This document shows positions 8,101 through 23,874 of a stretch of DNA of 64,000 nucleotides, one piece after another. This DNA is from an uncultured Cytophagia bacterium (GTDB lineage: Bacteria; Zhuqueibacterota; Zhuqueibacteria; Thermofontimicrobiales; Thermofontimicrobiaceae): assembly GCA_964605145.1 (NCBI GenBank), contig CAZSBG010000006.1, positions 28,788 to 92,787 of the forward strand, given 5' to 3'. The notes beneath the pieces are model-generated. The model saw nothing but the letters and a program-made list of their open reading frames with translations, was not told the origin of the DNA and did no database searches. The translations under genes and the position numbers were made by a program. Within the stretch, counting starts at the first letter, position 1. Each line of letters begins with the position of its first letter.

Positions 8101-8547
8101 AACGTGACCCTCAATTAATCCCTTTGCCTGAAGGTTATAGGAGCGATACATGGTATCGAAATCAGTCTGGCCCAGAGTTATCAGTTTTGTACCCGGGCCT
8201 ACAGACCCGGCAACGATTTTTTTTTTGTCTGCAGAATATTTATTAACAGCCCGGCGAGCAATGTCAGCAGCAACTTTGTTGATTTCAACCACCCGATCTT
8301 GCAATCCATACTCGGCGAGTACAATTACATTAGCGCCAAACGTGTTGGTTTCAACCACATCAGCGCCTACCTCCAAATATTTTTCATGGATTTTTTGAAT
8401 TTTTTCAGGCGCGGTCAAATTCAATACTTCGCTGCATCCGATTTTGCCATCCCACTCTACCTGTGTTGGATTCATGGCTTGAATTTGGGTGCCCATGGCA
8501 CCATCGAAAAGCACGATTCTTTCTCCGAACAATTCCCGGATTCGCAT
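5131..8547 (-). CDS. metH: Cobalamin-dependent methionine synthase MetH
   Basis: Its four modules are homocysteine S-methyltransferase, pterin-binding, B12-binding (DxHxxG region) and an AdoMet-activation domain. The track start at 8550 is GTG; the adjacent ATG at 8547 is preferred, with a GAGG RBS. Confidence 0.9.
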   Translation of the reverse strand: MRIRELFGERIVLFDGAMGTQIQAMNPTQVEWDGKIGCSEVLNLTAPEKIQKIHEKYLEVGADVVETNTFGANVIVLAEYGLQDRVVEINKVAADIARRAVNKYSADKKKIVAGSVGPGTKLITLGQTDFDTMYRSYNLQAKGLIEGHVDLFIMETCQDLLQIKTALLAIFDEMKAQDVKLPVIVSVTVETTGTLLLGSEIGAVMAALEPFDIDVLGINCATGPEQMHPYIKRISQQFDGPVICQPNAGLPENIDGALVYTLPVDEFVNIMSGFITEEGVQFVGGCCGTNPDFIKAMAEKIPTLTRPQREPEKFPSIASLFSERILKQDPGPFFVGERTNTNGSKKFREYVLNNDWDGVVSVARQQMKTGAHGLDLCVAFTGRNESADMKEAVSRIVKQVDLPLFIDSTDAHVIEKALQLAGGRCVINSINLEDGEDRVDKICQLAKRYGAALIALTIDENGMAREVDTKVEIAKRLYEIAVNRHGLRSKDIIFDALTFTLASGDESLSDSAANTLEGIKRIKNELDGVFTILGVSNVSFGLNPHTREVLNSVFLSEAVKAGLDLAIVNVKKIIPLYQIDAADREQCLNLIYNRGPENDLLTFIHYFDKKTGGIKRERIEEKKLSLEQKIMRQVVDGNSTGLEKLLKLALEKTGPLEIVNQLLIPAMKKVGDLFGAGEMQLPFVLQSAEVMKFAVDKLQPFMEKTEDHAKTSIVLATVRGDVHDIGKNLVDIILTNNGYKVYNLGIKCEIETILNKVQKVQADAIGMSGLLVKSTMVMKENLEEMKRRSVNVPVLLGGAALTKSYVEDVCQPILKQPVVYCLDAFSGLSSMGKIKSGALVNEFSAKPLNTKKKPKQQEEKPAGSGPPKIDRNVNIPSPPFWGERIVRGVDLGRVFTYLNETVLFRGRWGFRRGKLKSDEFENIIRHEARPALDEFKTRCKNEKLLVADVVYGYYPCNSENNQVIIFHPETQKEWKRLTFPRQKKAPFHCIADFFLPLNLGKRDVIALQVVSVGKRASEETKYLFETNQYKKYLLFHGLSVEAAEALAEYWHKQIRKELSMEAEDGEHIQDFVVQKYRGARYSFGYPACPDLSENRKIFEILKPEQIEVTLTNEDQMVPEQTTSAFVVHHPQAKYFTIE

Positions 8548-8785
8548 CACATCCTCACTTTTATTCCATTAAATTTTCACACTTCATCACCTAAATAAAT
8601 GTTATTTTATCAATTCAAAAAAGATCAACAAATAGTGTTTGGTCTTCATCGCTCTGCTACCAGCATTAAGTTGAATCAGCTTTAGCAGATTAAAGCTGAA
8701 CCGAAATATCTCTGAACCTCTGGCCTTTCAGAGATCATTCTGCAAGAGACTGAATAGTTTTCATCTTCAGCGATCTGCGCATTAA

Positions 8786-8820
8786 CAAAAAAAGGAGTTT
8801 GATAAATTTCAACAAACTCC
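8786..8820 (-). terminator. Rho-independent terminator downstream of the STAS gene, ending the long - strand locus
   Basis: In - strand orientation, GGAGTTTG-11 nt loop-CAAACTCC is followed by TTTTTTTG. Confidence 0.6.
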
Positions 8821-8852
8821 TGTTTTATATGAATAAAAATATTTTTCTAATT

Positions 8853-9566
8853 TTAATTCTGTTTAAATGTCTCTCTCTGAAAAAACTCAACCCTCTTTTT
8901 CTTGGAATTTAAGTTCAACTGTTTTAAATATCTAACCACCTGAAACCAGCTTAACTTTAAATTGCCGTACATCGGTGAATTTAACTCGCGCATAATTTTT
9001 ATGCTGCCATTCTCGGGATTTTCAATGACCAACTGTTTTATTTTTTCTTCGACGCTTTTATCCCCGGCATCCGACGAAATCATTTTATTTAAATACGCTT
9101 CTCTCTCGCTTGCATCGTCTTCGGAGTGAGAAGAATGACTCGTTTCTTCTTTATAACTTTCAGTGTCTCGTCTCACCTGACTGACACTTCGTTGTTCACC
9201 ACGCGGTCTGGATTTATCGAAATCAGCCACCGCATCTTCGATCGAATCGAAGGCTTTTAAAATATAATGAAATTCCAACAATTCAAATACTTCATACACG
9301 TCAGGAATCATGCCGATAAGCTTGAGGTCGCCACCTTTCTCCCGAATACCTTTAATCTCACTGATAAAAATACCCCAACCTGCGCTGCTTATGTAATCAA
9401 CATTGGACAAATCGATAATAATGTTGTAATTGTTGGCGTCTAACAAGGTTTCAAGAGAGTGTTCTAATTCTGCGGAAGTAGTCGTGTCAATATACCCACC
9501 CACCTTTATCACAGAAATATTGTTGTCAACACCTGTTTGTTTAACAGACAATTGAATTCCTTCCAT
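8853..9566 (-). CDS. STAS-domain protein (anti-sigma-factor antagonist-like) with a ~130-aa C-terminal extension
   Basis: The N-terminal ~110 aa (IKVGGYIDTTTSAELEHSLETLL ... DLSNVDYISSAGWGIFI) is a SpoIIAA/RsbV-type STAS fold. The C-terminal part is Ser/Glu-rich and then has a predicted helical domain. The track start is TTG at 9611; the ATG at 9566 preceded by GGAG is preferred. Confidence 0.75.
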   Translation of the reverse strand: MEGIQLSVKQTGVDNNISVIKVGGYIDTTTSAELEHSLETLLDANNYNIIIDLSNVDYISSAGWGIFISEIKGIREKGGDLKLIGMIPDVYEVFELLEFHYILKAFDSIEDAVADFDKSRPRGEQRSVSQVRRDTESYKEETSHSSHSEDDASEREAYLNKMISSDAGDKSVEEKIKQLVIENPENGSIKIMRELNSPMYGNLKLSWFQVVRYLKQLNLNSKKKRVEFFQRETFKQN

Positions 9567-9699
9567 CGAATACTCCAAGATGTATGATTCGCAAAATTTT
9601 CTTAAATTCAAATATAATAGAAAAACAAGTAAAAGTCAACAAAAAAATATGATTTACATCTTTCGTTTTTTTAATATACTATCTCATTTCTCTAAAAAT

Positions 9700-12600
9700 T
9701 TACTTACGATTTTTTAGTAATTCTTCAGCTTTGATAATATGATTCGAAATATCGTCTCTGCCGGGATCTAATTCGAGTAATTTTTTCCATTCCCCTATAG
9801 CTTCCTTTAACTTACCGTTATTCGCATAAATAACTCCTGTATTTTCATAAGCATCCGTATCTTTTGGATCCAGTTCTTTGACGCGAAGGTAAGCTGAAAC
9901 AGCCTTTTCGTATTGGTGGGAACGATAATAAGAGTTTCCCAGAATACTGAATGCTTCTTTGAACTCCGGATAAATTTTTGTAACTTGGAGGAATTGCTCA
10001 ACAGCTTGCTCGTAATTATGCTCATTATAAAATTTTAAACCCAGAATAAGGTGTTTCTCGCGAAGTGGGTCCTGTTTCGACAGGAATGAATTTGAATCTT
10101 CAGAATCATTTGTAACCTGGCTATTGGAAAAATTCATAAAATTATTCTCTTCGGATGCTCGTTTCTTTTCAGGATTTTTTGGCTGACCTTCGAGCACAAG
10201 CTCAGCTTCATCGTCCTGCAATTCGCCTTTTTCGAAAAATGAGATGTCCGATTCGATTTCATCCAATAAATCATTGAATGAAAATTCATCGCCCATAATT
10301 TCATCGTCCTCTAAAATATCCTGTTCATTAACTTCCGACACGTCCTGGACATCATCCAATAACTCCATGGTTTCATCTTGCGATTGATTCTCATCCTCTT
10401 CTTCGGAATCTTGAATTTCTTGTTCATCACTCAAGTCCAGTTTTCCATTATCGCCATTTTTATCCGTATCGGTTTGAAAAATTTCATTTTTAAAACTCGT
10501 TTCATCAACCAGTGTTTCGAAACCCAGATCGTCTGAGTTGTCTTCTTCAGAATCTTCGAGTAATTCATCTAAATTTATTGATGGTTTTGGTCTTTCCTGT
10601 TCTTCTTTCGGTTGATCAATTTCGTCAGGCTCGTCTGAAATTTCTTCTTTTGAATCTTCAAAGTCTGACGTTTCATTTAAATCCAAATCGTTTTCTTCAT
10701 CGTGTTCCCCCTGTTCATCCCAAATATCTTTGAAGCTGAAATCGTGCTCCAAGCCGAGATCATCAACGTCCTCAGCTTCTTCCGAAACGTCATCATCATC
10801 AAAATCAATATCGTCTTCCAGGTCAGTTGACTCTTCCTCTTCAAAAAAGATATCTTCCTCTGATTTTTCATCCGATGAATCGAAATCATCTTCACTTTCC
10901 GCAGTTTCTGATTCATCCTCGCGATGAATACTTGATTCATGCAAACCACCCTCTTCTTCATCGTCTTCTTCTTCATCCCGTTCTTTTTTGAGCAGGTCCT
11001 CAATTGGCATGGTCATCAGGCTTTCGAGGTAGAAGTTATCATCCGGATCCTTTGGCATCCTGACTTGCTTTGGCTTCCTGGGTTTATTTTTCTTTTCAAC
11101 GGGTCGTTCATCATCTTCTTCGTGACCGAGTTCTTTTTTCGATTCCTCCGGCGGCGGTGGTAAGGGAGGTTCGTCGTAGCTTCGGTCAAGAATAATCTTC
11201 CCGTCCAATGTTAACATCGGGGTACCCGGGGGTTTCATTCTCTTTTTCTTGCCTGACCGGGCGATATAAGCTTCCCGCAACTGCCGTGTGTTTAATCGAC
11301 TTCGAACGAGTTCATCATAGATTCGGCTTTCATTGATTTCCGTGTAGGTGTATTTTTCTGTGTTGAGTTCTTCGCTAATTCTCTTGGCACCAAATTCCGG
11401 ATGTTTCTTTATAATGTCATATATCTTCGTTTTTTCTTCGATACTCAGATGTTTCGCCTCGACGGCAATGGTTTCGTCAATGGAATAGGCGTCGATCCCT
11501 TCTTCTTCGAATATTTTTTTGTATTTATTATAGTATGCATAGGTTGTGATGCCTGATTCCTCACACGCTTCGCGGATATTTTTTCCGGCTAATATGGCGT
11601 TATGCGCTTTCTGCGCGCGATGCAATTCAATTTTTTCCGGCGAACTTTTTTCTTTGATGGCAACAACAGTGATATCGTCATTTTGGTCAAAGCCTTCTGT
11701 AAAAGAATGTATTTCATCTTTCAATTTATCGATAAATGCCTTGGCACGTAACGTTCCATGCTTACGTATCACATCCTGCAATCGCTCTTCACTGAACAAT
11801 TCACGGCGACCATTCATGGCCTCGGTGATACCATCGGTGTAAATCAATAGGATATCATCTTCGGCTAACTGAATTGTGTCCGATTCGATCGAACGTTTGA
11901 ACAATTCAGGATCCGGCAGTGAAATGCCCACCGGGAATCCCCTGGGATTTAAATAATACGTTTTCTTTGAACCCCGTCTGTAAAGAATCATTGGATTGTG
12001 CCCGGCGCTGGCGTAATTAATTCGTCGCTTTTTGGAATCAATGATGACATAAAACAGGGTCACAAACATTCCCTTTTTCATATCATTGACGACAAACTCG
12101 TTCACACGCGCCAACACCTCTGAAGCTGAACGAATGGAGCGCGCTTCGGTTCTCAGGGCAGTCCGAATCATTGTCATGATAAGTGAACCGGGAACGCCTT
12201 TTCCTGACACATCAGCAACGACAATCCCCAAAGTATCTTTATCCACTTCAACAAAATCGAAATAATCACCGCCAACTTGTTTGGCCGCTTCATAATGCGA
12301 TGCTATCTCGTATCCCTCCAGAACCGGGGTTTCTGCCGGAAGCAATGTCTGCTGTATATCCTGGGCCAGTTGCATTTCCTTTTGAATCCGCTCTTGTTCA
12401 GCGAGATTTTTCTGGGATTGTCGAAATTTATCCGTTATATCGCTAAAGGCTTTGGCAATCTCGCCCACTTCGTCGCCGCTATCGAAATCAATTTCGTCTT
12501 TGACATCTCCGCCATGACCCAGATCACTCACCCAGGTTGAGAGCTTGCGAAATGGATTCATTATTAAATAGATGAGCAATGTCACGCCGAGATAGCTCAG

Positions 12601-13593
12601 CGCCAAAATCATAAATGCTGTCAGAAGATCTCTCGTCCGAACCGAAGCCACCTTGCTGCTGACGACATCTTTTTGAAATTCCAGGTAGACGGTTCCAACC
12701 CTTACCCGAGAAGCATTGTATATATCGCTTACAAAGCTGTAAACTTCCGTTCCACTGTTGTCGTCTTTATATTTGTAGAGATTGGGACGTGGTTCATCGC
12801 GATCTGAGGGAATAACAAATTCCTGCCCCAGCAATGTTTCATCAGTTGAATTAATGATATAATTGGTCGTATCAGTGACTGACAGACGATAAAAATCGTC
12901 TTTTGACTCCTGAAATTCCTTAACTTTGAGCGCCACATAAAATATTTTCAAATCTTCATCTTCATTATCGATGATACTGCGGGCAATACTTTTGCCGGTA
13001 GGTCGCTCGATGGCAACAAATTCATCCAGCACTTCGTTCCCATGCTTGAAAAAATAATAGAAATATCCGATCGTAATAGCAACGAATAATATTAGTGCGG
13101 AAATGATTGAGTAGCGCATTTTCAAACTGACAGATATGGTGGGAGTCTGAATCACTTTTTTCTTGCGAAAAGAACTGACCCTGTATTTCGTCAGCCTGAG
13201 TTCATTGCCTTCTTCGGTATGATGGTATTCAATTTCATCCAGCAGCTTGCGCATGATAAAAATTCCCAGACCACCCTTTTTACCGATATCAACATACCGC
13301 TTCAAATCCGGGTCTGCAACTCGGGACGGATCAAAATATTTTCCCTGGTCGATAAGCACAACACTCATGCTGTTTTTCTTGACGATGACGCGCATTGTAA
13401 TCATGCCCTCCAGATCGCGGTAGGCATGCTTAATGATATTCGTCGCGGCCTCGTCAATGCACAGCTTGAATGCATTTACCACTGTATCCGGGAAGCTATG
13501 TTTGCGCCCTGCTTTGGTGACAAAATTCCGCAGTTCGCCCAGATAATCAATGTGAGCGGGAACTTTTATTTCTTCTTTAATCGCTGCTTTCAA
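9700..13593 (-). CDS. 1,297-aa multidomain transmembrane signalling protein. Domains, N to C: RsbW/SpoIIAB-like HATPase kinase, TM, periplasmic sensor, TM, HAMP, SpoIIE/PP2C phosphatase, HTH-like segment, ~370-aa polyacidic disordered region, TPR repeats.
   Basis: The N-terminus (FKLCIDEAATNIIKHAY ... GGLGIFIMRKL) matches anti-sigma-factor serine-kinase HATPase_c. There are two TM helices (aa ~160-182 and ~326-348). The PP2C motifs are YEIASHYEAAKQVGGDYFDF, VVADVSGKGVPGSLIM and YTDGITEA. The C-terminal TPRs are LILGLKFYNEHNYEQAVEQF.... Confidence 0.75.
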   Translation of the reverse strand: MKAAIKEEIKVPAHIDYLGELRNFVTKAGRKHSFPDTVVNAFKLCIDEAATNIIKHAYRDLEGMITMRVIVKKNSMSVVLIDQGKYFDPSRVADPDLKRYVDIGKKGGLGIFIMRKLLDEIEYHHTEEGNELRLTKYRVSSFRKKKVIQTPTISVSLKMRYSIISALILFVAITIGYFYYFFKHGNEVLDEFVAIERPTGKSIARSIIDNEDEDLKIFYVALKVKEFQESKDDFYRLSVTDTTNYIINSTDETLLGQEFVIPSDRDEPRPNLYKYKDDNSGTEVYSFVSDIYNASRVRVGTVYLEFQKDVVSSKVASVRTRDLLTAFMILALSYLGVTLLIYLIMNPFRKLSTWVSDLGHGGDVKDEIDFDSGDEVGEIAKAFSDITDKFRQSQKNLAEQERIQKEMQLAQDIQQTLLPAETPVLEGYEIASHYEAAKQVGGDYFDFVEVDKDTLGIVVADVSGKGVPGSLIMTMIRTALRTEARSIRSASEVLARVNEFVVNDMKKGMFVTLFYVIIDSKKRRINYASAGHNPMILYRRGSKKTYYLNPRGFPVGISLPDPELFKRSIESDTIQLAEDDILLIYTDGITEAMNGRRELFSEERLQDVIRKHGTLRAKAFIDKLKDEIHSFTEGFDQNDDITVVAIKEKSSPEKIELHRAQKAHNAILAGKNIREACEESGITTYAYYNKYKKIFEEEGIDAYSIDETIAVEAKHLSIEEKTKIYDIIKKHPEFGAKRISEELNTEKYTYTEINESRIYDELVRSRLNTRQLREAYIARSGKKKRMKPPGTPMLTLDGKIILDRSYDEPPLPPPPEESKKELGHEEDDERPVEKKNKPRKPKQVRMPKDPDDNFYLESLMTMPIEDLLKKERDEEEDDEEEGGLHESSIHREDESETAESEDDFDSSDEKSEEDIFFEEEESTDLEDDIDFDDDDVSEEAEDVDDLGLEHDFSFKDIWDEQGEHDEENDLDLNETSDFEDSKEEISDEPDEIDQPKEEQERPKPSINLDELLEDSEEDNSDDLGFETLVDETSFKNEIFQTDTDKNGDNGKLDLSDEQEIQDSEEEDENQSQDETMELLDDVQDVSEVNEQDILEDDEIMGDEFSFNDLLDEIESDISFFEKGELQDDEAELVLEGQPKNPEKKRASEENNFMNFSNSQVTNDSEDSNSFLSKQDPLREKHLILGLKFYNEHNYEQAVEQFLQVTKIYPEFKEAFSILGNSYYRSHQYEKAVSAYLRVKELDPKDTDAYENTGVIYANNGKLKEAIGEWKKLLELDPGRDDISNHIIKAEELLKNRK
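10083..11193 (-). repeat. Polyacidic low-complexity disordered region (D/E-rich, ~370 aa) within the multidomain signalling protein
   Basis: The coding strand is dominated by GAA/GAT/GAG codons. The Ser-rich track ORF on the opposite strand at 10730-10927 is an antisense artefact of this region. Confidence 0.8.
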
Positions 13594-13625
13594 ATTTAAT
13601 TTATCCTCTCTTCCGATAATCCTCT

Positions 13626-15548
13626 CTATTTATTCCGCTGCCGTTGTCTCTCTTTTGCCTGATCGATGGCGTCCAATATTTCCTGGTTATAAGGTTGAAT
13701 TTCTAACAGCTCTTCCCAGGTTTTTATTGCGTCATTATATTTTTCAGCTCTATAGAGATTAATTCCTCGATTATACCGCTTGGTCATTTCCGGGGTCATT
13801 CGCTGTTTTTTCGCATTGGCGCGACGGTCTGCATCTTTATAGAATTTCTTTAGCTGCTCATTATTGGGCCGATGCTTAAGCGCCTCTTCGAATGAATTCA
13901 TCGCATTGATATAATCCTTTGTGATATAATACCGATATCCCTGCTGAAATAACTCATCGAATTGCATTTGCTGCTTGTATCGATTGCTGCGCGTTTCAAT
14001 TGCGTTAATTTGCTTTTGATCCGGATTCAACATACGCACATTGTTCAAAACACTGATGGCTTCCAGGTAGCGGCCCTTCCTGGCAAAATTATCCGCTCGG
14101 TTAATCAGCGAGAGTATTTTCTTTTCATAATCTGTATTTGCTTTGGCAATCCACTCTTTTGCCAGTACATTATTAGGATCGCGATCCAACATTTTCTGCC
14201 ATTCAGCAATGGCTTTTTCGTATTCATCGACTTCGTAGTGCGCCAATCCTGCATCAAATTGCCTGTCCAGGAAAATTTTCAATTCTTCGCGTCGTTTTTC
14301 TTCCTCATTACGGGTTCTGATTTCATCATAGGCTTGCTTAATTTTATCATCGCGTTTCTGAATTGTTGCTTCCGCCAATTTACGCGCTTCTTCGATCACC
14401 GTTGAATTTGGAATTTCATTCTCATAGCTGGTAATGAAATTGAATTCTCTCAACGCCCGGGCATAATCTTCAATTTCAAAATATTGTTTTCCGCGTTCCA
14501 GACTCTCCGCGATTTTTTCGTCCCGTTCCCAAATTCGCTGCTGTTCCACTTTCCGTTGAATTTCCTGCAGCCGCCGCTCTTCTGCTATTTTCACAAGCTC
14601 CTTTTTCGATTTTCCAAATGTCATGCTCAAAGAAATTCGGTGGCTTGCATCGAATTCATTTTCTGAAAATTTTCCATACGAGTAATCTATCTGAAACTTG
14701 TTAACCACTGCGCCAGCGCCAAAGGCAAGCTGATTGTTATTCAGCCCAACGCGCAGCATGGCGAAATTATTGAACACATATTCAGTGCCGGTGTGATATT
14801 TGAACGGCTCATATTCACTTTGCTCAAAATCCATAAAAATCGTGAACTGATTTCCCCATTCATTGGTTAAAATGGGCTTGGCAAATCCCATTCGGAAATT
14901 CAGCGGGTGGACATCTGTTTCGGAAATTAACTTCAGTCTCGGTCCGACAACATTTTGCAGCGCCACTCCAACAGAAAGCCCGCTCAAAAGTGCATTGGTA
15001 AAATTGGGTCGATATAAAAATCCAAGATCGAGTCCAACGCCTGTATCCGATATTTTAAAAATGCTTTGATGCTCAACCTTCAGGTTCACGCCGACACTGA
15101 TATTCCACGGCAACTGTTTTCCGTAGGAAACCAAAAACTGTTGATTGGAGAGTGAATTATCGTCCCCATAATAAACATTATCATTATCTCTTTCAGGAAT
15201 TCCACCGGTTCCAATGCTGATGGCGGCCACACCGAACGAGCCCAACGCCACTGTGGGATGAGCATAACCCACATAAAAATATTGAGTATCCATGACGAGA
15301 TTGGTATAAAACAAGCTCACGTTTTTTCTTTGAATATAATCCAGTCCGGCGGGATTCCAATAAACTGCGGTTGCATCGAACGGCATCGCAACGTAGGCAT
15401 TGCCCAGCGCCAGAGCCCTGGCGCCGACCCCAAGATTGAAATTGCTTTGCGTCCCTGCAAAACCATCATCTCCTTTAGCTATACCGGCAAACATACCAAA
15501 TGCCAGAAAAAAACTGAAAATCCCTATGAATAAATTTGATTTTCGCAT
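13626..15548 (-). CDS. FadL/PorV-like outer-membrane beta-barrel (N-terminal ~310 aa) fused to a ~330-aa TPR/coiled-coil C-terminal domain
   Basis: Signal peptide, then GVGARALALGNAYVAMPFDATAVYWNPAGL, the FadL/PorV-family N-terminal motif. The first half has alternating beta-strand-like segments. The C-terminal half is TPR-like (YEKAIAEWQKMLDRDPNN, YNDAIKTWEELLEIQPYN) and rich in charged coiled-coil. It starts 17 nt after the giant T9SS cargo gene. Confidence 0.65.
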   Translation of the reverse strand: MRKSNLFIGIFSFFLAFGMFAGIAKGDDGFAGTQSNFNLGVGARALALGNAYVAMPFDATAVYWNPAGLDYIQRKNVSLFYTNLVMDTQYFYVGYAHPTVALGSFGVAAISIGTGGIPERDNDNVYYGDDNSLSNQQFLVSYGKQLPWNISVGVNLKVEHQSIFKISDTGVGLDLGFLYRPNFTNALLSGLSVGVALQNVVGPRLKLISETDVHPLNFRMGFAKPILTNEWGNQFTIFMDFEQSEYEPFKYHTGTEYVFNNFAMLRVGLNNNQLAFGAGAVVNKFQIDYSYGKFSENEFDASHRISLSMTFGKSKKELVKIAEERRLQEIQRKVEQQRIWERDEKIAESLERGKQYFEIEDYARALREFNFITSYENEIPNSTVIEEARKLAEATIQKRDDKIKQAYDEIRTRNEEEKRREELKIFLDRQFDAGLAHYEVDEYEKAIAEWQKMLDRDPNNVLAKEWIAKANTDYEKKILSLINRADNFARKGRYLEAISVLNNVRMLNPDQKQINAIETRSNRYKQQMQFDELFQQGYRYYITKDYINAMNSFEEALKHRPNNEQLKKFYKDADRRANAKKQRMTPEMTKRYNRGINLYRAEKYNDAIKTWEELLEIQPYNQEILDAIDQAKERQRQRNK

Positions 15549-15565
15549 AGTACAAATCCTGTTTG

Positions 15566-18500
15566 CTATTTTATCACTGCAATTTTTATGAGTGCTGATT
15601 TTCCATTACCAGTGGATATTCTGGCAACGTAGACGCCGTTTAATACCTTATATCCCTGACCATTTCTGCCATCCCAAATCACATCCGAATCGTGCAAACC
15701 TTTTCGACCCTGAGGCTCGAGTTCAGAATAGGTGCGTGACCAAACCAGCTCGCCGATCAACGTATATATTTGTATTTTCACTTCAGTGTCTTCATCCAGG
15801 TAATAGACGAAATTGGTCACCGGCCTCCCGATTTCTCCGAAAGGATTGGGATAATTGCTGAACGCCTTGTCAAAATCCGCTTCAATTATTACCGATGGCT
15901 CAGATTCAAAATTAAGCGCTTCCAATGTTTGCCCATTGACATTCTTTAATTTCGGCGTTTGCCCGGATTCCTCATCATAAAGATAAAGAGAATTGACCGA
16001 ATCAATCGCTATTTGAAAATCACTAATTTCGGCTGTGGTTGCAATATCCACTTTGAACTGAACCTGGTTTTCAATTTCAGGTTTGAGCGTATCTATTTGT
16101 GAAAATAGAATTTCAATTGGATTTGACGTTGGAATTGCTGTTATCTGTCCAAAAACTTCATTGTTTTGCTGATTATTCACAACACAGACGCGTGAAATAA
16201 CCTGGGCCGGATTTGTAACAGGCACGCCAAATCGATCCTTCAATTTAATTTTAACGCCTGTAAACAGTATATTGTTCGAAAACGCATCGCCGGATGCCAG
16301 CAATTCCAGTCCCATCATGGACACGCCGGTATCCCCCCGGGCAATCGTGTTTTTTGTTGTTGTGGGCAACATACTCACAGTGACGCTTTTTTCTTCAGCA
16401 GAAATTGGAATCGAAACATTTTTCAGCAAGATTGCTTCTGCTGCAACAGGTAGATTTGAGTTTTCATCTTCCGGCCAACTCACGAGGTCAATCGCGATAT
16501 TGCTTGGATCTCTCTCTGATGTCGGTGCGGTGATTGTCCAGAACAGTGAATCATTATACGCAGCCGTCTGGGTTAAATCCTGCGCGATGGAATATCCCTG
16601 GCCTTCCGGCAAAGTTAACGTTGCATTGAAATTTCCCAAAATGTTTGCATCGCCGGTTTTTGAAAGATAAGCGCTCACTACAAAGTTTTGATTCGTTGAA
16701 ACGATACCATCCAGAGCGCTTGCCGGAGATAATATTTTACCTTTCAATTGAATTTCTGCCCGGCGAACCACGTCCACTTCCAGCGAATCCGATGTTCTGG
16801 TGAATGATATTCGACTGTTGGCATCCTGCGCTGTTAATTTCATCCAGATGTGCTGATCGTCGATTGTGCCTCCCGGCGTGGTGATTGTCCAATTCACTGT
16901 TCCCTGGTCGCCAACTCCCACCGGTAATTTTGGATAGGATTCCGGCGTTGTAAATCCTCCTTCCAATTGCAGTTGCACGGAAGGCGCGCCGGTACAGTTA
17001 AACCAGCTCACATCAGCTTCAATTTGAAAGGATTGATGAGTTGACAGAATTTTATCAATCGCCCCGACCGGTGATACAATCCGGAGATTCTCGATCCAGG
17101 CATTTGCCGATTGTTGCGTCTGAACATAGTAATATTTTGATCGGGTCGGCACCATTGCTTTTTCATTTGTATTCACATCTTTGGGTATCGTATTGATGGT
17201 GACAACAATTGGTGCTTTCAGGGTTTCGACTTCAGGAGCCAGCAATCGCCAGGTTACAGGAATATCCGGCTGGAACGGTTTCACTGTATCGTCCTCCGTG
17301 GTGACGCCGGTTGCTCCAAAATCGATGCTCAAATACGCCGCGCCTTCAAGAGGTGCATCCCCAGAATTAATGACAATCGCACTCAAATCGAATTCCTGTC
17401 CCATGGAAAGTGTGCTGTCGGTGGAAGGCCAGGAAATCCATGCCCGATCGATCAACAACGTCGCCCGATTTTCAACTACGACAGAAATACTGTCAGATGC
17501 CGTGACCTCATCGCCTCCAACGGTTCCTGTGACCAGAACTTTTATCCACTTCTCATTGGAATGTGCGTTTTCAGGAGCGATAAGTTCCCAACCGGCCACG
17601 TCTGCGACGTTCGCTTTGATTGAATCTGTGCCAGGCGCAAATCTGTATCCTGCCGGGAGGTTCAATCTGGCGTTTGCGCTGGTGATGTTTTCCGACTTCA
17701 TAATATCTACCTGAACCCAAAAATTCTGAAGTGTGGATAAAGTATCATCCAGCGCCCCTTCAGGCGAACTTATTTCGAATGATTCCACGGCAAGCTCCAG
17801 AGGCACCGTTCTCACCACAAGTGAATCAAACGGGTCCGTATTTTCTATCAAAGCAAATGAGCCGGTATTTTCATCCAAAGGCGGTTTTGAAATCTTCGCG
17901 ACAATCGTATCGTTACTGGACGCATATGAAGGCGGCACGACCTGCCATTCCACTGTTTCATTAATTTCAAACGATGTGGTATCGGATGATTTTTGTTGTT
18001 GGTCGACCACGACAAAATAATTCTGCGGCATGAATAAGGCCAGTTCGCCGCTGGCGTCCACATCTGCTGTTCCGAGATTTTCAATTTGAACCTGAAATGG
18101 CGCGACCTGGCCAATCGAGTAAATCGAATGTTCCTTATTGATGGAAATTTTCAACAGGGCCGGATCGTGCACACGAACCAACGCTGTGGAGTCAGATGCT
18201 CCACCGATTGTAGCCGGAAGGCCGCTGCCGTGTGAAATAGCTGATTCAATTCGCACTGTAAATTTCACCTGTTCAGTGGCCACGGACTGTGCCGCAACAT
18301 TGAAAGTAGCAATGGCCTCTCCTGAAGGTAAAATATTATCGATATTCACAGAGGGTATGATGTACCCAGGCGCTGTTAAACTCACCAGCACATTATCAAC
18401 TTGTTCCCCCCCGGTATTACGGATTTTTGATCTCACGGAAAAAGCCTGGTTTGTGTTCACCTGGCCGATATCGTACTGGTTAATATTTCGACACACCGGT

Positions 18501-21500
18501 TCCGTAAAATCGATGAAAACATCTGCAGACGGACGAACATAAACCGCGCCTGAGTCTGCCACCTGAAAAGTTGTATTTGTATTTAAATAGGTTCCACTCA
18601 AATTTAGTTTTATTTTTGCCATTCCGCCCAAAACACCGGTACTTGTCACGCGGTAAATCAGCGTATCGGCTCCATTCCAGGACAGCGTTAAATTTGGATT
18701 ATTTTCAAATTCGAGTGGCGCCACGATGGTGTAATCATCCTGCTCATTCCCGGTAATTATGATGGATACATCCTCTCTGTTTGGCGGATCCAATTTTATG
18801 AATCCCGCTCCGCTATCTTCAACAGCCACGATAATTTGCCATTCGAAAGGACTCAGCGCTCTGACCGTATCCTGCGATGGCGAAATGGAAACAATTTTGA
18901 ACTTGCCTGGTCGCTGTACAGTGACTGTATCCGTCGAATCGACTGAGGGGCTGATAAAAATTTTATCAGGCTCCGTCGGTGTATTTTCTGCAAATGCGGT
19001 ATCAATTGAGGCGGAGAATACTTCATCCCAAATCCAGTCCGATGACGCCTGTACATTGAACTTTAGCGTATCCGTGCTCGCGCCTTGCACAATTTCAAGG
19101 GAATCCACCGGATTCAAAATAGTTGATGTACTATCACTAATTAACGACATTTTGATATTTTGGGCCGCGTCTTCTCCCTGGTTCTGGACAAGAACGGCTA
19201 TCTGGAAAACCTGATTATTATCCACATACGGCGCATTGGGCGCAATATTCACAGTTTTCAGAATTCGAATATCGGCCGGCATTTCTACCTTAATTGTTGT
19301 GCTATCTTCAGCGGTTTTTTCTTCCTGACTGTTTATCTCCTCGGCAAAAACCGATACATGAATCGTTCGACTGCCTGCAACAGAACCGGTTGTGTCCACT
19401 GAAAAAATCAGGCTGTCCGTAGCGCCGGAAGGCAGCTTGAAAAAGCCGAGTGTTTCAAAACTTATTGGGAAACTGACCACATAATTTGTGTCATCCCCAA
19501 AACTCACAAAGTCATTCAGGTGTGTCGAATCGATTGCAATATCTCCGCCACCGTTATTAGTTAGCGAAATAATAGTCTGCCAGGGCATTGATTGATTTAC
19601 TGTTACTTCTGGTTGGGATGTTCGAATATAATCTATAACAAGCTCACCCGGCGCCTGCACCGTTACCCCGGTCACTTTGCTTTTGATGATTTGACCGCTG
19701 ATCATATCATTCAAATAAACTGTTCCTCCAATGGTAACTGAACCGATTGTTGTGCCGGTTTCATCAACCGTTACTATCAGCGTATCGGTCAATCCGGCAT
19801 CGAGCAAACTATCACCACTTGTCTTGAATGTGTCAGGATATAACATCTGGTACTCGCTCGAAATATCTGAACCGCCATAGGTAAAATTTACCCGAGCGCT
19901 ATCCAGCCGCAACGGCGCTCCCCCATTATTGCGAATTACCATGTTCAGAAACCAGTTCTCAGCCTGACCGCTGGTGACCGTTCTCTGACTGGGATAAAAA
20001 TCGACTATTTCCAAATCAGATGCTTGTTTGACATACCATTGATCGGTTGTGTCTGCGTTCAAATCCGAATAGGGTAGTTCTGAGTTTTCATCGCTTGCAT
20101 AGACTTTTCCATCGATTGTTATGCTGTCGAGTGTGGCATTTGTGCCTACCGTTACGGTAAAGAACAGACTATCCAGGCTGTGCCCTGCGATTGAGGTTGG
20201 ATTCGTCGGATAAGGCACGAGCGCATATTCGTCACTCACATCTAAAATTGGTGGCGTTAAATTTGAATAAGAGAATCTCACTGAATCCACAATCGCCGTT
20301 GCATCCCCATTATTCTGAATCCTTGCGGAGATAATTGTATTTGTCCCCTGGGTAACGGTATCTGCATCAGCTTTCACTCTCAAAAATTGTAGTGAAGGAG
20401 GCGTTTGAACCAGCCATTTATCCGTTTCATTGGCTGCCACATCGCTTACAGAACTGCCATTTACCCTGCAATTAATGAAACCATCGATCTGGATTGAATC
20501 TGTCAATGCGTTTGACTTCACATTCACTAAAAAACTTAGGGTCTTATTTCCATTTCCTGGTAACACTGAAATCGTATCATTACGACTCACAATATAATCG
20601 CCTGAACGATTTGAATAACCGGGTGCAGGGCCGGTAAATTCTAATCCAGCGCCATCAGAAATTATCGTGGCATTTGAAGCGCCATGATTTTTCACGGCCA
20701 TCAGAACCGTTATATTTTGTTGATTGCGGCTCACTTTATCAAAATCTGAACTAACAGACAGAATCTCCAACCCGGAAATAATTATGCTGGTATCCCCAAC
20801 TGCACTTCCCCTGACAACACTATTCGCCTGAACGAGAGCCGTTCCACCTGTTACACCTGCATTGACAACGAATGAAATTTGGCCTGCTGTGTCTGATACA
20901 ACCTGTGTGCCTCCGATACCCGGATTTTCATCAGGTGTTGTAATGGTACCCAATGTTGTTGACACGGTGAAATATTCGCCGCTGGAAATTGGATTGTTAT
21001 CGCTGTCACGAATTGTATCCGACGTAACCACAGAAAACGAATCAGGATCGGCCGGTATTATTTCAGGAACAGGATGAAGTACAATTTCGCCTATCGGTAC
21101 GCCGGGATTTACAGTAATGAGTCCAGTCGTATCATTTTCTGCTGTAGCATGCACGGCCAGAATTTTTCCGTGCGCCGGCGCTGTTGATGGCGAGAAATCA
21201 AGCGTTGAACCGGTCCACAATACAGCCGGCGCTAATGTACTGTCACTGGACCAATCTACAACCGCCGGCCCGAGATAAACATTTCCTTCGTCATAAGCAG
21301 CCGCATACAGTGTCAATGTTTCATCGGCTGAAATGGTACGCGTCGTCACCACATTGCCGGCGCCATTATCTGCATCGCGAATGAGCACGTGGTGAATGGC
21401 TCCCACAGTAAATGTACCTGTCGAATCGGCTCCCACACTCACACTGTCAGCATAAATTCGTCCACTCGTATAGGGCGTAGCCGGACTGAACATTGTGCTC

Positions 21501-23656
21501 GTTCCCTGCAATGGAGTTGGCGTATCCAGATCTCCGGTGGTTCCCCAGTCTGCAACCACTTCTCGAATGTAATTATCATACTGGTCGTATCCTGCAGCGT
21601 AAAGGGATATTTGATCATCCAGATTCAACATATAATCACCAACCTCGGAGCCCAAACCACCCGGATTATCCCGAATGACAATGTGATTCAATCCATCTGG
21701 TTTCACATTGAAATTATTCGAAACACCACTCTCGCCGGAGCCGGCTGCAGTGATTTTATTATCCGTATATTTTTTTGTGATTGTTAAATTTCCTGACCAG
21801 GTGCCTGCACTGAAATTTCCTGTGGAACCGGGGCTCAAAGAACCGGACTCATCCGTCAAACTGACCGCATTTGTAAATCCGGTCACTATATTTTCGTATG
21901 CATCGTTTGCTTCAATAGTCACCGAGAAAGGTGTTCCAGCAGTCTGCGGGCTGGAAATATCTGAAATTGAAAAATGATCCAGTGATGCCGGGTTCACATT
22001 AAAGCTGTTTGACGTTCCGTTTTTATCGCTGCCATTGACAATGATTTTATTACTGGAACCAGTTTTCGTGACAATCACATTACCATTCCAGCTCCCTCCA
22101 CTGAAACTGCCTGAAACCTGGGGAGTGAGTGTGCCTGTTAAATCACTCATCGCCACAGGACCGGCGTACGTTGGTATTGTATTCCCTTCTCTATCCTCTG
22201 CCGTTACAGTTATCGAAAAAGAATTACCGGCTGTTTGTGGTGTTGAAATAGCGTCAATAGTAAAATGATCTAACGCTCCCACTTGTACATCAAAAGCATT
22301 TGATGTCCCGGTTTCGCCTCCGCCGGATCGCTGAACGCTGATCTGATCATTGGTAAAATCGGCTGTAATCTTCACCTGACCGTTCCATTCTCCGCCGCTG
22401 AAATTGTCACTCTGATTGGGCGAGACTGTCCCGCTATTATCCGAAATATCTACTTTTCCGGTAAAACTTGTTACGGTGTTATCATAATTGTCCTGGGCAG
22501 TAACTGAAATGGAAAAATATTCGCCCGCAGTTTTGGGAGAAGAAATCGGCCCGATGTAAAATTTTGCCAAACTTCCGGGATTCACATTGAATAAATTCGA
22601 TGTGCCAACTTTGGAACTCCCGGATGCTGTAATGTAATTATCGCTCTGGCTTTCCGTGATTGTTACGCTTTGCGTTAATGAACCTGAGCTAAAAATATTT
22701 GATGTTTCGTTGAGCGAACCGGTAAGATCGGTCAACAATACAGTGCCAGTAAAACTTTCCACAAGATTCTCATACTGATCCCTCGCAGTAACTGTAATGC
22801 TGAATGACGTCCCGGCCGTTTTTGGACTGGTGATTGTGTTAAATGTAAAATGATCCAGGCCGGCAGGCAAAACATCAAATTCAGATGACATGCCGGATAT
22901 ATCATTATACGTGGCTGTAATTTTATTATTCGACCTGCTTTTAGTAAACGTCACCGTACTATTCCAGACACCTGCTGTGATGCTGCCGGTAGATGTTGGG
23001 CTAATAGTATCGGTTAAATCTGTCAGCGCAACAGAAGATGTATGCGACGTGACCGTATTGTCGTATGCATCCTGTGCGGTAATTGTGACAGAAAAATTTG
23101 AACCAGCCGTTGCATCGCCACTTGTACTGACATCAAAATGATCCAGCGCTCCGGCAGCAATTGAAAAATTTGGTGTATTCCCGTCATCGATATGGGTGTA
23201 TCCCTGGGTCATGGTAATAATTTTTACGCTATAATTATCCGCATCCGGGTTATTCCCCACAGTTCCGATACTGATTTCCACCTCGGTTGATGCCGGAACT
23301 TTTGTTCCGGTGCCATCACGTTCGATCATGACCGAGTCACCATTAACATATTGTATGGAAACACCGCCATTGATACTGCCATCCTCCGAATCGGCAATTT
23401 GAACGCCCGTGAGATCGAATCCCGACGGAAAAATTAATTTAATTTTGCCATCCACCGGGATGCCGTCATCAGCATTATTCCCTGTCGCTGAAGTTGTGAA
23501 AGTAAAAGTATAAATCGCGGACTCCCCGGCAACATTATCACTCAAACTTGTACTCATATTTGCTAGATCACCTTGCGCAAATACTATAGTTGCATTCCCT
23601 GAAAAAATGAGAATTATTACTATTACGATCCCTGCTCTCAGATGTCTTATCCTCAT
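15566..23656 (-). CDS. Giant (~2,696-aa) cell-surface protein with tandem Ig-like repeats and a C-terminal type-A T9SS sorting domain
   Basis: Signal peptide MRIRHLRAGIVIVIILIFSGNATIVFA (ATG at 23656; the track start at 23671 is TTG). At least five ~95-aa tandem repeats share the motif LDHF..ISSPQTAG..FS.TVTA.D.Y.N...F.G.V.L. The last ~90 aa (NYPNPFGE...VYVARISTGNGKSALIKIAVIK) match the Por_Secre_tail / TIGR04183-type CTD. Confidence 0.85.
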   Translation of the reverse strand: MRIRHLRAGIVIVIILIFSGNATIVFAQGDLANMSTSLSDNVAGESAIYTFTFTTSATGNNADDGIPVDGKIKLIFPSGFDLTGVQIADSEDGSINGGVSIQYVNGDSVMIERDGTGTKVPASTEVEISIGTVGNNPDADNYSVKIITMTQGYTHIDDGNTPNFSIAAGALDHFDVSTSGDATAGSNFSVTITAQDAYDNTVTSHTSSVALTDLTDTISPTSTGSITAGVWNSTVTFTKSRSNNKITATYNDISGMSSEFDVLPAGLDHFTFNTITSPKTAGTSFSITVTARDQYENLVESFTGTVLLTDLTGSLNETSNIFSSGSLTQSVTITESQSDNYITASGSSKVGTSNLFNVNPGSLAKFYIGPISSPKTAGEYFSISVTAQDNYDNTVTSFTGKVDISDNSGTVSPNQSDNFSGGEWNGQVKITADFTNDQISVQRSGGGETGTSNAFDVQVGALDHFTIDAISTPQTAGNSFSITVTAEDREGNTIPTYAGPVAMSDLTGTLTPQVSGSFSGGSWNGNVIVTKTGSSNKIIVNGSDKNGTSNSFNVNPASLDHFSISDISSPQTAGTPFSVTIEANDAYENIVTGFTNAVSLTDESGSLSPGSTGNFSAGTWSGNLTITKKYTDNKITAAGSGESGVSNNFNVKPDGLNHIVIRDNPGGLGSEVGDYMLNLDDQISLYAAGYDQYDNYIREVVADWGTTGDLDTPTPLQGTSTMFSPATPYTSGRIYADSVSVGADSTGTFTVGAIHHVLIRDADNGAGNVVTTRTISADETLTLYAAAYDEGNVYLGPAVVDWSSDSTLAPAVLWTGSTLDFSPSTAPAHGKILAVHATAENDTTGLITVNPGVPIGEIVLHPVPEIIPADPDSFSVVTSDTIRDSDNNPISSGEYFTVSTTLGTITTPDENPGIGGTQVVSDTAGQISFVVNAGVTGGTALVQANSVVRGSAVGDTSIIISGLEILSVSSDFDKVSRNQQNITVLMAVKNHGASNATIISDGAGLEFTGPAPGYSNRSGDYIVSRNDTISVLPGNGNKTLSFLVNVKSNALTDSIQIDGFINCRVNGSSVSDVAANETDKWLVQTPPSLQFLRVKADADTVTQGTNTIISARIQNNGDATAIVDSVRFSYSNLTPPILDVSDEYALVPYPTNPTSIAGHSLDSLFFTVTVGTNATLDSITIDGKVYASDENSELPYSDLNADTTDQWYVKQASDLEIVDFYPSQRTVTSGQAENWFLNMVIRNNGGAPLRLDSARVNFTYGGSDISSEYQMLYPDTFKTSGDSLLDAGLTDTLIVTVDETGTTIGSVTIGGTVYLNDMISGQIIKSKVTGVTVQAPGELVIDYIRTSQPEVTVNQSMPWQTIISLTNNGGGDIAIDSTHLNDFVSFGDDTNYVVSFPISFETLGFFKLPSGATDSLIFSVDTTGSVAGSRTIHVSVFAEEINSQEEKTAEDSTTIKVEMPADIRILKTVNIAPNAPYVDNNQVFQIAVLVQNQGEDAAQNIKMSLISDSTSTILNPVDSLEIVQGASTDTLKFNVQASSDWIWDEVFSASIDTAFAENTPTEPDKIFISPSVDSTDTVTVQRPGKFKIVSISPSQDTVRALSPFEWQIIVAVEDSGAGFIKLDPPNREDVSIIITGNEQDDYTIVAPLEFENNPNLTLSWNGADTLIYRVTSTGVLGGMAKIKLNLSGTYLNTNTTFQVADSGAVYVRPSADVFIDFTEPVCRNINQYDIGQVNTNQAFSVRSKIRNTGGEQVDNVLVSLTAPGYIIPSVNIDNILPSGEAIATFNVAAQSVATEQVKFTVRIESAISHGSGLPATIGGASDSTALVRVHDPALLKISINKEHSIYSIGQVAPFQVQIENLGTADVDASGELALFMPQNYFVVVDQQQKSSDTTSFEINETVEWQVVPPSYASSNDTIVAKISKPPLDENTGSFALIENTDPFDSLVVRTVPLELAVESFEISSPEGALDDTLSTLQNFWVQVDIMKSENITSANARLNLPAGYRFAPGTDSIKANVADVAGWELIAPENAHSNEKWIKVLVTGTVGGDEVTASDSISVVVENRATLLIDRAWISWPSTDSTLSMGQEFDLSAIVINSGDAPLEGAAYLSIDFGATGVTTEDDTVKPFQPDIPVTWRLLAPEVETLKAPIVVTINTIPKDVNTNEKAMVPTRSKYYYVQTQQSANAWIENLRIVSPVGAIDKILSTHQSFQIEADVSWFNCTGAPSVQLQLEGGFTTPESYPKLPVGVGDQGTVNWTITTPGGTIDDQHIWMKLTAQDANSRISFTRTSDSLEVDVVRRAEIQLKGKILSPASALDGIVSTNQNFVVSAYLSKTGDANILGNFNATLTLPEGQGYSIAQDLTQTAAYNDSLFWTITAPTSERDPSNIAIDLVSWPEDENSNLPVAAEAILLKNVSIPISAEEKSVTVSMLPTTTKNTIARGDTGVSMMGLELLASGDAFSNNILFTGVKIKLKDRFGVPVTNPAQVISRVCVVNNQQNNEVFGQITAIPTSNPIEILFSQIDTLKPEIENQVQFKVDIATTAEISDFQIAIDSVNSLYLYDEESGQTPKLKNVNGQTLEALNFESEPSVIIEADFDKAFSNYPNPFGEIGRPVTNFVYYLDEDTEVKIQIYTLIGELVWSRTYSELEPQGRKGLHDSDVIWDGRNGQGYKVLNGVYVARISTGNGKSALIKIAVIK
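15569..15850 (-). other. Type-A T9SS C-terminal sorting domain of the giant surface protein
   Basis: YPNPF ... IWDGRNGQGYKVLNGVYVARI ... K terminal pattern. Confidence 0.75.
21750..23160 (-). repeat. In-frame tandem coding repeats (~285 nt units, about five copies) encoding Ig-like domains near the 5' end of the giant gene
   Basis: Recurrent nucleotide and protein-level units (...LDHF.ISDISSPQTAG.PFSVT..A.DAYEN.VT.FT..V.LTD.SG.L.P...G.FS.G.W.GN..ITK...NKI...GS...G.SN.FNVNP..L). Confidence 0.7.
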
Positions 23657-23704
23657 TTGATGCTCTTCCAAAGTTTTTGTTCGTCAATTCTTTTTCATCT
23701 GTCT

Positions 23705-23874
23705 CTAACCTGGATTATTCATTGTAATTCATTAAGGAATCCAGATAGCCTAAATGCTGCTTAATTCAGAATTCGTTATATCAAACTCTGTTAAATTTCA
23801 TACACCTCGTTAATCTTTTTAATAACATTTATTTATATATGTTTAGGTTGAAATCTGTGAATAATTCAGGCTAA
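23705..23874 (-). mobile_element. MITE-like element copy B: 162 bp (23709-23870), inverted relative to copy A, flanked by CTAA direct repeats
   Basis: The reverse complement aligns end to end with 1499-1660. Its terminal inverted repeats are CCTGGATTATTCA ... TGAATAATTCAGG, with 4-bp CTAA at 23705-23708 and 23871-23874. Its end nearest the giant surface-protein gene lies about 50 nt upstream of that gene's ATG. Confidence 0.7.

Follow-up and report, generated by a model that had tools for sequence, protein, structure and literature searches.

The window analysed here, a stretch of 64,000 nucleotides (nt), belongs to an uncultured Cytophagia bacterium that GTDB places in the Zhuqueibacterota (KSB1). 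Its minus strand carries, at 13626–15548, a gene for an outer-membrane beta-barrel protein of the PorV/PorQ family that continues into a long tetratricopeptide repeat (TPR) tail, in the following called the barrel-TPR protein. The gene upstream on the same strand, which ends 17 nt before it, encodes a giant secreted protein with a C-terminal domain (CTD) of the kind that directs cargo to the T9SS (type IX secretion system), and a sensor gene begins 32 nt downstream, followed by the gene of a STAS protein. We describe this arrangement and its conservation, which suggest that the barrel may be a dedicated anchor or carrier of the giant protein and that its tail may couple this protein to the sensor.

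The barrel-TPR gene and its product

The gene and the parts of its product, numbered in amino acids (aa), are as follows.

13626–15548, minus strand: barrel-TPR gene, one open reading frame (ORF) of 640 aa with an ATG start and without internal stops
15471–15548, minus strand: predicted signal peptide (aa 1–26) with the core LFIGIFSFFLAFGMFAGIA and without a lipobox cysteine, from a hydropathy scan
15333–15461, minus strand: N-terminal segment (aa 30–72) with the family motif, the plug- or hatch-like part of the FadL fold
14616–15326, minus strand: 14-strand beta-barrel (aa 75–311), from the AlphaFold2 model
13632–14606, minus strand: tail (aa 315–639), which opens with a charged helix of 44 residues and continues with about five TPR-like units that long helices connect

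The exact 640-aa sequence is present in NCBI and Logan. At the N-terminus, hydropathy marks a hydrophobic segment at aa 6–24, and the AlphaFold2 model, which was calculated from an alignment of 75 sequences, shows a helix at aa 3–21 and a linker at aa 23–28 with a low predicted local distance difference test (pLDDT) score; the cleavage site was judged by eye and not by a predictor. Short helices at aa 36–71 lie ahead of strand 1, where the match to the family profile begins as well. The best-conserved block of the family is found here, namely the motif GxGARAxxxG...DAxAxxWNPAGL at aa 40–69 (GVGARALALGNAYVAMPFDATAVYWNPAGL), in which R44, G49, A54 and N65 are invariant among the 75 aligned sequences.

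An original prediction made from the DNA letters had described the protein as a barrel fused to a TPR-containing tail of about 330 aa, and both parts were recovered. The model, with a mean pLDDT of 89.6, comprises 14 strands in aa 75–311 and 13 helices in aa 315–639; pLDDT values are mostly above 88 in the tail helices and 92–94 at the junction (aa 300–320), while the predicted template modelling score of 0.57 leaves the placement of barrel and tail relative to each other undefined. Pfam TPR_2 reached 69 bits in three stretches, and TPR_1, TPR_14 and TPR_11 also matched (aa 430–625). Within the tail, A446 is invariant in the 75 sequences and E449, W450, L454, G537, Y541, P561, Y604 and N621 are conserved in at least 90% of them.

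The final barrel strand closes with ...ISLSMTF, a motif like a beta-signal in an internal position with an aromatic last residue, which in its sequence resembles the internal beta-signal of OmpA-type barrels preceding a periplasmic domain. In an even-stranded outer-membrane barrel both termini lie on the periplasmic side. Because of the even strand number, and because paralogues carry an OmpA domain at the same C-terminal position, the tail is by analogy taken to be periplasmic. Almost certainly, the protein is exported by Sec, belongs to the PorV/PorQ family and joins a FadL-fold barrel of 14 strands to a TPR tail of about 330 aa that is built of helices.

Family membership

On the N-terminal motif, the protein had been assigned to the FadL-fold family that includes PorV, and this assignment was borne out by the NCBIfam model NF033709 for the PorV/PorQ family (136.2 bits at a cut-off of 90, E 1.9e-39, aa 38–311 against profile positions 8–326 of 326); its orthologues score 88–198 bits. 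The likeness to PorV stood at this family level and failed for PorV itself, since the protein scores far below the equivalog cut-offs for PorV (NF033710, 51.3 bits against 250), PorQ (NF033711, 64.3 against 220) and PorV2 (NF052325, 71.1 against 325). Among the orthologues, the PorQ model scores slightly above the PorV model. As judged from these scores, the protein is a variant inside the PorV/PorQ family and neither PorV nor PorQ proper.

Structural matches agree with this placement. In a Foldseek search of the PDB, PorV of Flavobacterium johnsoniae ranked first (8gl6_F, E 1.3e-11; 6h3i_F), followed by FadL, and PelB matched weakly; a profile search of PDB sequences gave PorV as the sole barrel match (E 6e-18). 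The solved PorV chain (chain F of 6H3I/8GL6) has 402 aa in the sequence file with 345 residues modelled, and the equivalog models of PorV and PorQ are 367 and 335 aa long. A TPR tail is indeed foreign to PorV and PorQ as described, in line, for PorV, with the original prediction. The barrel domain spans about 280 aa here as against about 370 in PorV.

Three related classes were considered and rejected. PorP/SprF is ruled out for the window protein, which matched neither TIGR03519 nor PF11751 at E≤0.1; one distant orthologue reached 26 bits on the PorP/SprF model (cut-off 90.55). The FadL/TodX/OMPP1 family (PF03349, Toluene_X) is ruled out by a score of 14 bits against 29.7, confined to aa 43–81, and by gene context, although the FadL fold as such is shared. 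In the exporter class of PelB, BcsC and PgaA, the TPR part stands at the N-terminus and the C-terminus is a porin barrel of this class's own family; the present protein does not conform to this plan.

Homologues and other C-terminal add-ons

A word-indexed search returned 222 homologues. Among the best 120, most have 630–690 aa and cover 94–100% of the query at 33–97% identity; those that bear a name at source are entered as 'PorV/PorQ family protein' or 'TPR repeat protein' and come from KSB1/Zhuqueibacterota and Calditrichaeota. The best named homologue is 79% identical, with its entire gene block collinear with the window. In an exhaustive search of representatives, 3,386 proteins were found at E≤1e-30, with an end-to-end match in most of the top 150, and the architecture of barrel plus TPR was present in more than 100 independent assemblies. 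The original prediction had allowed that the C-terminal half might belong to a separate ORF after a frameshift. This is refuted by the homologues, whose near-complete coverage extends down to 33% identity. A frameshift-fused gene pair or a chance ORF has a practically negligible probability in view of the uninterrupted ORF, the number of independent assemblies and the continuously high pLDDT across the junction.

For gene context, contigs were searched for the barrel family, which gave 80 loci; barrel, tail, CTD, sensor and STAS protein were then sought among the ORFs called in them by means of hidden Markov models (HMMs). Tail length varies considerably. Among the top 150 representatives, variants of 1,100–1,450 aa combine the barrel with a much longer TPR array, and in two such loci, L088 (1813–6141, 1442 aa) and L089 (5510–9046, 1178 aa), the tail units are repeated many times. 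At L088 the barrel is still preceded by the CTD protein and followed by the RsbW-type sensor. The arrangement at L089 is different: a dCache_1 protein is encoded two genes downstream, and a PP2C gene is found on the opposite strand. At the other extreme, the barrel of L075 (Elusimicrobia) ends in a proline-rich linker and a single TPR unit, which bears the same signature.

Tail-less relatives carry other C-terminal add-ons (L058 9968–11233 and 16493–18181; L052 1104–2384). One type is a FlgD_ig-like domain of about 117 aa, the fold class of the cargo CTD; the add-on of L058 16493–18181 is an OmpA peptidoglycan-binding domain with a weak match to the C-terminus of PorE. Since TPR, FlgD_ig and OmpA add-ons are common in the family outside the Bacteroidota, the fusion of barrel and tail is not a one-off, and the PorV/PorQ barrel is there a modular platform for periplasmic add-ons. 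In a rough neighbour-joining tree of the barrel domains, nearly all tailed barrels fall into one clade, sister to the FlgD_ig-extended group, and the barrels of L050 and L075 are placed apart from it. Judging from this tree, the fusion had one or two origins and was retained for a long time.

The giant CTD protein

Upstream of the barrel-TPR gene the following features are found.

15566–23671, minus strand: giant secreted protein, 2701 aa as listed, with an N-terminal signal anchor and Ig-like/CARDB repeats
15569–15880, minus strand: CTD of the giant protein (aa 2598–2701), a type-A-like T9SS sorting domain with FlgD_ig fold, presumed ligand of the barrel
23890–24399, minus strand: small secreted protein, 169 aa, with a signal peptide and without a Pfam family

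The true start of the giant protein is likely the ATG at 23656 (MRIRHL...) and not the TTG at 23671, as alignments with its homologues begin at this ATG. The position of the barrel gene right after a predicted T9SS cargo gene was confirmed by the short gap and by the type A model TIGR04183 (cut-off 23), on which the isolated last 104 aa reach 27.7 bits and the whole protein 21.5 bits. With this score of the isolated CTD and the N-terminal hydrophobic segment, the giant protein qualifies as predicted T9SS type A cargo. CTDs from related loci behave similarly: 22 of 23 match TIGR04183, 22 of 23 match FlgD_ig, and one of 23 matches the type B model TIGR04131. The giant protein further resembles the PorU and PorZ models, in both cases through the CTD regions, and no match to either was found outside the CTD; on the PorZ model the match is limited to the C-terminal ~100 aa and scores 27.8 bits at a cut-off of 260, so that the protein does not count as PorZ, the partner of PorQ.

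The size of the giant protein is variable. Most KSB1 loci encode about 2500–2700 aa, Calditrichota over 3300 aa (truncated where the locus stops), and L003 (6652–9987, in the 5.2-Mb genome CP070762.1) only 1111 aa, which match the C-terminal 40%. Orthologues are alignable throughout only in the C-terminal part and the CTD. By BLASTP, the N-terminal ~150 aa of the giant protein have a paralogue in the 169-aa protein, whose gene is kept just upstream of the giant gene in the five looked-up loci that retain the region and forms the first part of the block in KSB1.

The original prediction had proposed a cargo-dedicated shuttle or anchor and had named co-occurrence as a check. Of 53 tailed loci, 50 encode a protein with a homologous CTD immediately upstream of the barrel, as do 20 of 35 tail-less ones, and several metagenome-assembled genomes (MAGs) contain two or three paralogues of the barrel family, each behind its own CTD protein (L006/L052, L043/L062, L041/L068). 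The proposal is well supported by this gene arrangement, which is that of known private carriers and anchors, and we consider it quite probable that the barrel is dedicated to the giant protein.

The sensor, the STAS protein and the conserved module

Downstream of the barrel-TPR gene, and at the far end of the conserved block, lie the following features.

9700–13593, minus strand: sensor, 1297 aa, with an RsbW-like kinase (aa 12–136), transmembrane (TM) segment TM1 (163–181), a periplasmic loop, TM2 (327–345), HAMP, PP2C/SpoIIE (452–647), a helix-turn-helix (HTH)-like part (~660–780), an acidic disordered region and cytoplasmic TPRs (1180–1290)
12616–13050, minus strand: periplasmic loop of the sensor (aa 182–326, about 145 aa), Cache-type, candidate partner of the tail
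8853–9611, minus strand: STAS protein with an extra C-terminal domain, presumed substrate of kinase and phosphatase
24717–25847, minus strand: cytoplasmic TPR protein, 376 aa, without a signal peptide, at the 5' edge of the KSB1 block

The sensor is a fused partner-switching protein of RsbW-like kinase, Cache, HAMP and PP2C parts and not a histidine kinase. All three partner-switching components score above their Pfam cut-offs (HATPase_c_2 94.7, SpoIIE 173.1 and STAS 64.7 bits), and a weak match to the SiaA model was seen among these neighbours. Of 13 orthologous loops, four matched Pfam sCache_3_2 (best E 3e-14); the loop of the window matched dCache_1 weakly (E 0.003). The acidic segment (aa ~800–1170) comprises about 370 residues, is rich in D, E and S, appears disordered and differs in length among orthologues, which total about 900 to 1460 aa.

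The STAS protein likely starts at the ATG at 9566 (MEGIQL...) and not at the TTG at 9611, since homologue alignments begin at the former. Its C-terminal domain (aa ~171–246) is homologous to aa ~703–781 of the sensor, a region with weak matches to HTH_28 and to the N-terminus of IS481 transposases. This shared domain possibly binds DNA, and the output may therefore be direct control of transcription and not the release of a sigma factor.

At five homologue loci, which have barrel-TPR proteins of 37–79% identity and were compared with the window's proteins by BLAST, the orthologous block reads 376-aa TPR protein, 169-aa secreted protein, giant protein, barrel-TPR protein, sensor and STAS protein; in MAGs labelled 'Ignavibacteria', the gene for the 376-aa protein is located downstream of the STAS gene. 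The flanking genes vary (MetH, Obg/DprA or CarboxypepD_reg). The core order of giant CTD protein, barrel-TPR protein, sensor and STAS protein was found in KSB1, Calditrichota including a MAG of Caldithrix abyssi (HGY56631.1 / UniProt A0A7V4U260), 'Ignavibacteria'-labelled MAGs, Krumholzibacteriia, Zixibacteria and Eisenbacteria, and it is maintained at identities between 79% and about 25%. In a scan of 8400–26400, no minus-strand terminator-like sites lay in the short gaps between the four genes at 8853–23671. Over the whole scan the number of terminator-like sites equalled the shuffle expectation, and promoter-like sites numbered 61 against an expected 43.3 (standard deviation 6.4), a modest excess obtained with a sigma-70 consensus that may not suit this lineage.

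Association of the tail with the sensor

Tail and sensor were both present in 47 loci and both absent in 28, with two loci having the tail and no sensor and two the sensor and no tail; in other words, an orthologous sensor is adjacent in 47 of 49 tailed loci as compared with 2 of 30 tail-less ones. Inspection of the four discordant loci showed that three are not real exceptions. At L078, scored as tailed without a sensor, the sensor is present and had been missed by an ORF-merging artefact. The two loci scored as having a sensor and no tail are L075, where the one-TPR mini-tail stands beside a Cache-HAMP-HisKA histidine kinase, and L064, with only a weak HAMP-like match. Among the loci scored as positive for the sensor, L043 has the STAS gene first and a TM-Cache protein one gene further.

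In L050 (Endomicrobiales) and L075 (Elusimicrobia) the barrel is followed by an sCache_3_2-HAMP-HisKA-HATPase kinase, encoded at 11958–13400 and 11160–12608, respectively, in place of the RsbW/PP2C protein. An HMM built solely from the loops of KSB1-type sensors detects the Cache domain of the L050 kinase (E 2e-7), as well as the L075 kinase and the L043 sensor, which indicates that the tailed barrel has kept a Cache domain beside it and that only the transmitter in the cytoplasm has been replaced.

Fisher's exact p value for tail versus sensor (9e-17) is inflated by the one or two origins of the tail and serves as a description only. Mirror-tree distances of the sensor loop correlate with those of the barrel (r 0.88) and the tail (0.87) better than with those of the sensor's own cytoplasmic domains (0.59–0.69), with partial correlations of 0.37 and 0.40; these values were not relied on, since domains of the envelope that evolve rapidly reach saturation in parallel and the loops align poorly (about 20% identity). 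The idea that the tail could reach the neighbouring sensor, voiced already in the original prediction, gains from the presence of a periplasmic loop of about 145 aa and from the near-perfect co-occurrence, from which a contact between the two may be deduced. The coupling of tail and sensor is nevertheless a tentative claim, to which we give somewhat less than an even chance.

Comparison with known systems

To our knowledge, the biology of the T9SS is founded almost wholly on two Bacteroidota models. In the attachment complex of Porphyromonas gingivalis, PorV and PorQ serve as the anchors of PorU and PorZ (PMC12365241), and the window module resembles these PorQ-PorZ and PorV-PorU pairs in that a CTD-bearing surface protein would be held on a PorV/PorQ-family barrel. 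PorV, the type A carrier (LptO in P. gingivalis), is however devoid of a TPR tail and serves all type A cargo, whereas the barrel described here possesses a periplasmic tail of about 330 aa and appears tied to one cargo. PorQ likewise lacks a TPR tail, and a sensor next to it has not been described, whereas the window barrel has both.

The barrels of the PorP/SprF type sit beside their cognate type B cargo (PMC9143113, PMC12618676). In P. gingivalis, the TPR protein PorE forms a complex with PorP and PG1035, and porP-like genes adjoin porE-like genes (PMC9143113). With SprF-SprB and PorE-PorP-PG1035, the logic proposed for the window module has in common a private FadL-fold barrel next to an often giant cargo, anchoring via the CTD and a periplasmic TPR partner of the barrel. 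The differences are that the TPR of PorE belongs to a separate lipoprotein whereas it is fused to the barrel here, that PorP/SprF form another barrel subfamily working with type B CTDs whereas the CTD in the window is type-A-like, and that the window protein, unlike PorE, has neither a beta-propeller nor an OmpA part. By analogy, the closest known counterpart would be the unfused PorP-PorE-cargo complex, with a mode of action that may also be like PorQ-PorZ anchoring. More generally, the covalent link of an outer-membrane barrel with a periplasmic domain recalls OmpA and the TPR porins. The combination of TPR and barrel is a recurrent design in envelope-spanning export (PelB, BcsC, PgaA, Slam).

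Signalling by T9SS cargo has a precedent as well, since in P. gingivalis the CTD of PorA signals to PorY in the periplasm (PMC12152298). There, as proposed here, a T9SS cargo or CTD reports via the periplasm to an inner-membrane sensor that regulates expression (PMC12152298). In the PorA-PorY pair, the CTD itself binds a histidine kinase, whereas in the window the proposed messenger is the TPR tail and the receiver a Cache-HAMP-PP2C/RsbW protein. The latter and its STAS neighbour share with RsbU/RsbW/RsbV and with SiaA/SiaB/SiaC of Pseudomonas aeruginosa the RsbW-like HATPase_c_2, the HAMP plus SpoIIE/PP2C and the STAS components, but kinase and phosphatase are fused in one membrane protein together with a Cache loop, and the STAS protein carries an additional, HTH-like domain. 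In the searchable literature, we found neither a link of PorV-family barrels with TPR tails or partner-switching proteins nor a description of the module, and the Zhuqueibacterota paper does not mention secretion.

Proposed mechanism and competing explanations

We propose that the giant protein is exported and that its CTD would stay bound to the barrel afterwards, which would make the barrel both private carrier and surface anchor of this protein. The tail would hang into the periplasm and contact the Cache-type domain of the adjacent sensor, a step suggested by gene order. Whether the surface protein is present, how it is loaded or which ligand state it is in could then set the balance between kinase and phosphatase activity in the sensor, and this balance would determine the phosphorylation of the STAS protein as the output of the partner switch. 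As a whole, the system would correspond to a covalently fused PorP-PorE analogue wired to a signalling protein. To the full statement, a dedicated anchor or carrier whose periplasmic tail couples the giant protein to the sensor, we assign a probability of about one half.

Several observations weigh against it. The contacts between CTD and barrel and between tail and Cache domain are both deduced from gene order only. Within the 64-kb window, none of the T9SS core genes (sprA/sov, porK/L/M/N, porU) was found. L047 is a true tailed locus without a sensor, and the association of tail and sensor is not phylogenetically independent, i.e. the 49 tailed loci are not 49 separate events. The periplasmic loop of the sensor is poorly conserved (~20% mean identity). 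Cache domains usually bind small molecules, and the sensor may therefore need no protein partner. Tail lengths between a single TPR unit and about 1100 aa make a periplasmic bridge of fixed length less likely, and with a barrel about 90 aa shorter than that of PorV the long extracellular loops with which PorV enters the SprA pore and binds type A CTDs may be missing.

Some of these points feed the strongest competing explanation, according to which the tail is only a scaffold, either as a docking or chaperone platform for unfolded cargo in the manner of PorE or SprE/PorW or as a tie to the T9SS ring or the cell wall, and the Cache sensor reads a small ligand and regulates the operon without touching the tail. 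It could call on the precedents of PorE, a TPR protein bound to PorP and cargo, and of SprE, a TPR protein at the translocon, on the tail of the C. abyssi orthologue, for which the TPR part of the PorE model gives a weak match (E 7.6e-7), on the structural OmpA and FlgD_ig add-ons of paralogues, on the variable tail length and on the small-molecule habit of Cache domains together with the sCache_3_2 matches in the loops. However, the pairs of CTD protein and barrel in 20 of the 35 tail-less loci show that the handling of cargo needs no tail, and the tail is nearly confined to loci with a Cache sensor, including the one-TPR form and the form with a swapped output domain. We regard the scaffold as possible, though on the unlikely side. 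A broader alternative would make the pair of CTD protein and barrel, together with that of TPR tail and Cache sensor, a self-contained module for surface display and trans-envelope signalling with interchangeable transmitters (PP2C/RsbW partner switch or histidine kinase) that perhaps functions even in lineages such as Elusimicrobiota and Firestonebacteria, which are not known to have a T9SS. This is a speculative and rather unlikely extension; if true, the pairing of T9SS-type CTDs with PorV-family barrels would be older and more autonomous than the secretion system after which it is named.

The barrel might instead be a general PorV or PorQ of this organism, the housekeeping carrier or attachment-complex barrel for every type A cargo, with a tail peculiar to the lineage. 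It passes the family model, PorV is its best solved structural match, and porU adjoins porV in Bacteroidota, where a CTD-protein gene beside porV can thus be a housekeeping arrangement. Yet the scores lie far under all three equivalog cut-offs, the upstream protein resembles the PorU and PorZ models in its CTD only, further paralogues stand beside other CTD proteins in the same MAGs, and the linkage to one orthologous giant protein is strict, which renders a general carrier improbable. Still less credit is due to a FadL-like uptake channel for a hydrophobic compound that the Cache sensor would perceive, with the giant protein as an unrelated neighbour: the Toluene_X score is far under its cut-off, PorV matches better in both sequence and fold, the adjacency to a CTD protein is kept across phyla and the conserved block contains no catabolic genes.

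Should the preferred coupling of tail and sensor apply, a cell would have a new route for reading the state of a giant surface protein, be it an adhesin or a coat, with a logic comparable to that of FecA-FecR, RcsF-IgaA and PorA-PorY and built from different parts. Outside the Bacteroidota, the PorV/PorQ barrel appears as an add-on platform of which each form is paired with its own CTD protein, and the module of the tailed form, with a Cache-HAMP phosphatase/kinase and its presumed STAS substrate, is kept across at least six candidate phyla. The module offers a testable function for genes that are annotated just as 'PorV/PorQ family protein' or 'TPR repeat protein'. Caldithrix abyssi is a cultured species and a possible experimental entry point, its orthologue being known here from a MAG.

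Surroundings in the window

The remaining genes of the window are mostly housekeeping genes around the replication origin, with dnaA (52451–53818, minus), dnaN (50775–51902, minus), recF (49641–50765, minus), gyrB (47317–49263, minus), gyrA (44862–47294, minus) and yidC (55221–57080, plus). A probable origin lies inside the window, where the guanine-cytosine (GC) skew changes sign near 52 kb; this would place the module about 30–40 kb from oriC. The gap between dnaA and yidC (~53.8–55.2 kb) is part of the most AT-rich stretch (GC 0.296 at 54–56 kb).

Just upstream of the module, a PilM_2-like protein (28102–29073, minus) is encoded beside two ORFs without a family match (26994–27983 and 29211–30107), and these genes may belong to a type IV pilus-like assembly cluster or be what is left of one. 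A further ORF on the plus strand (39944–42601) encodes 885 aa with matches to an N-terminal patatin-like phospholipase domain and a BamA/Omp85-type barrel, an architecture that we take to be that of a PlpD-type (type Vd) secreted lipase.

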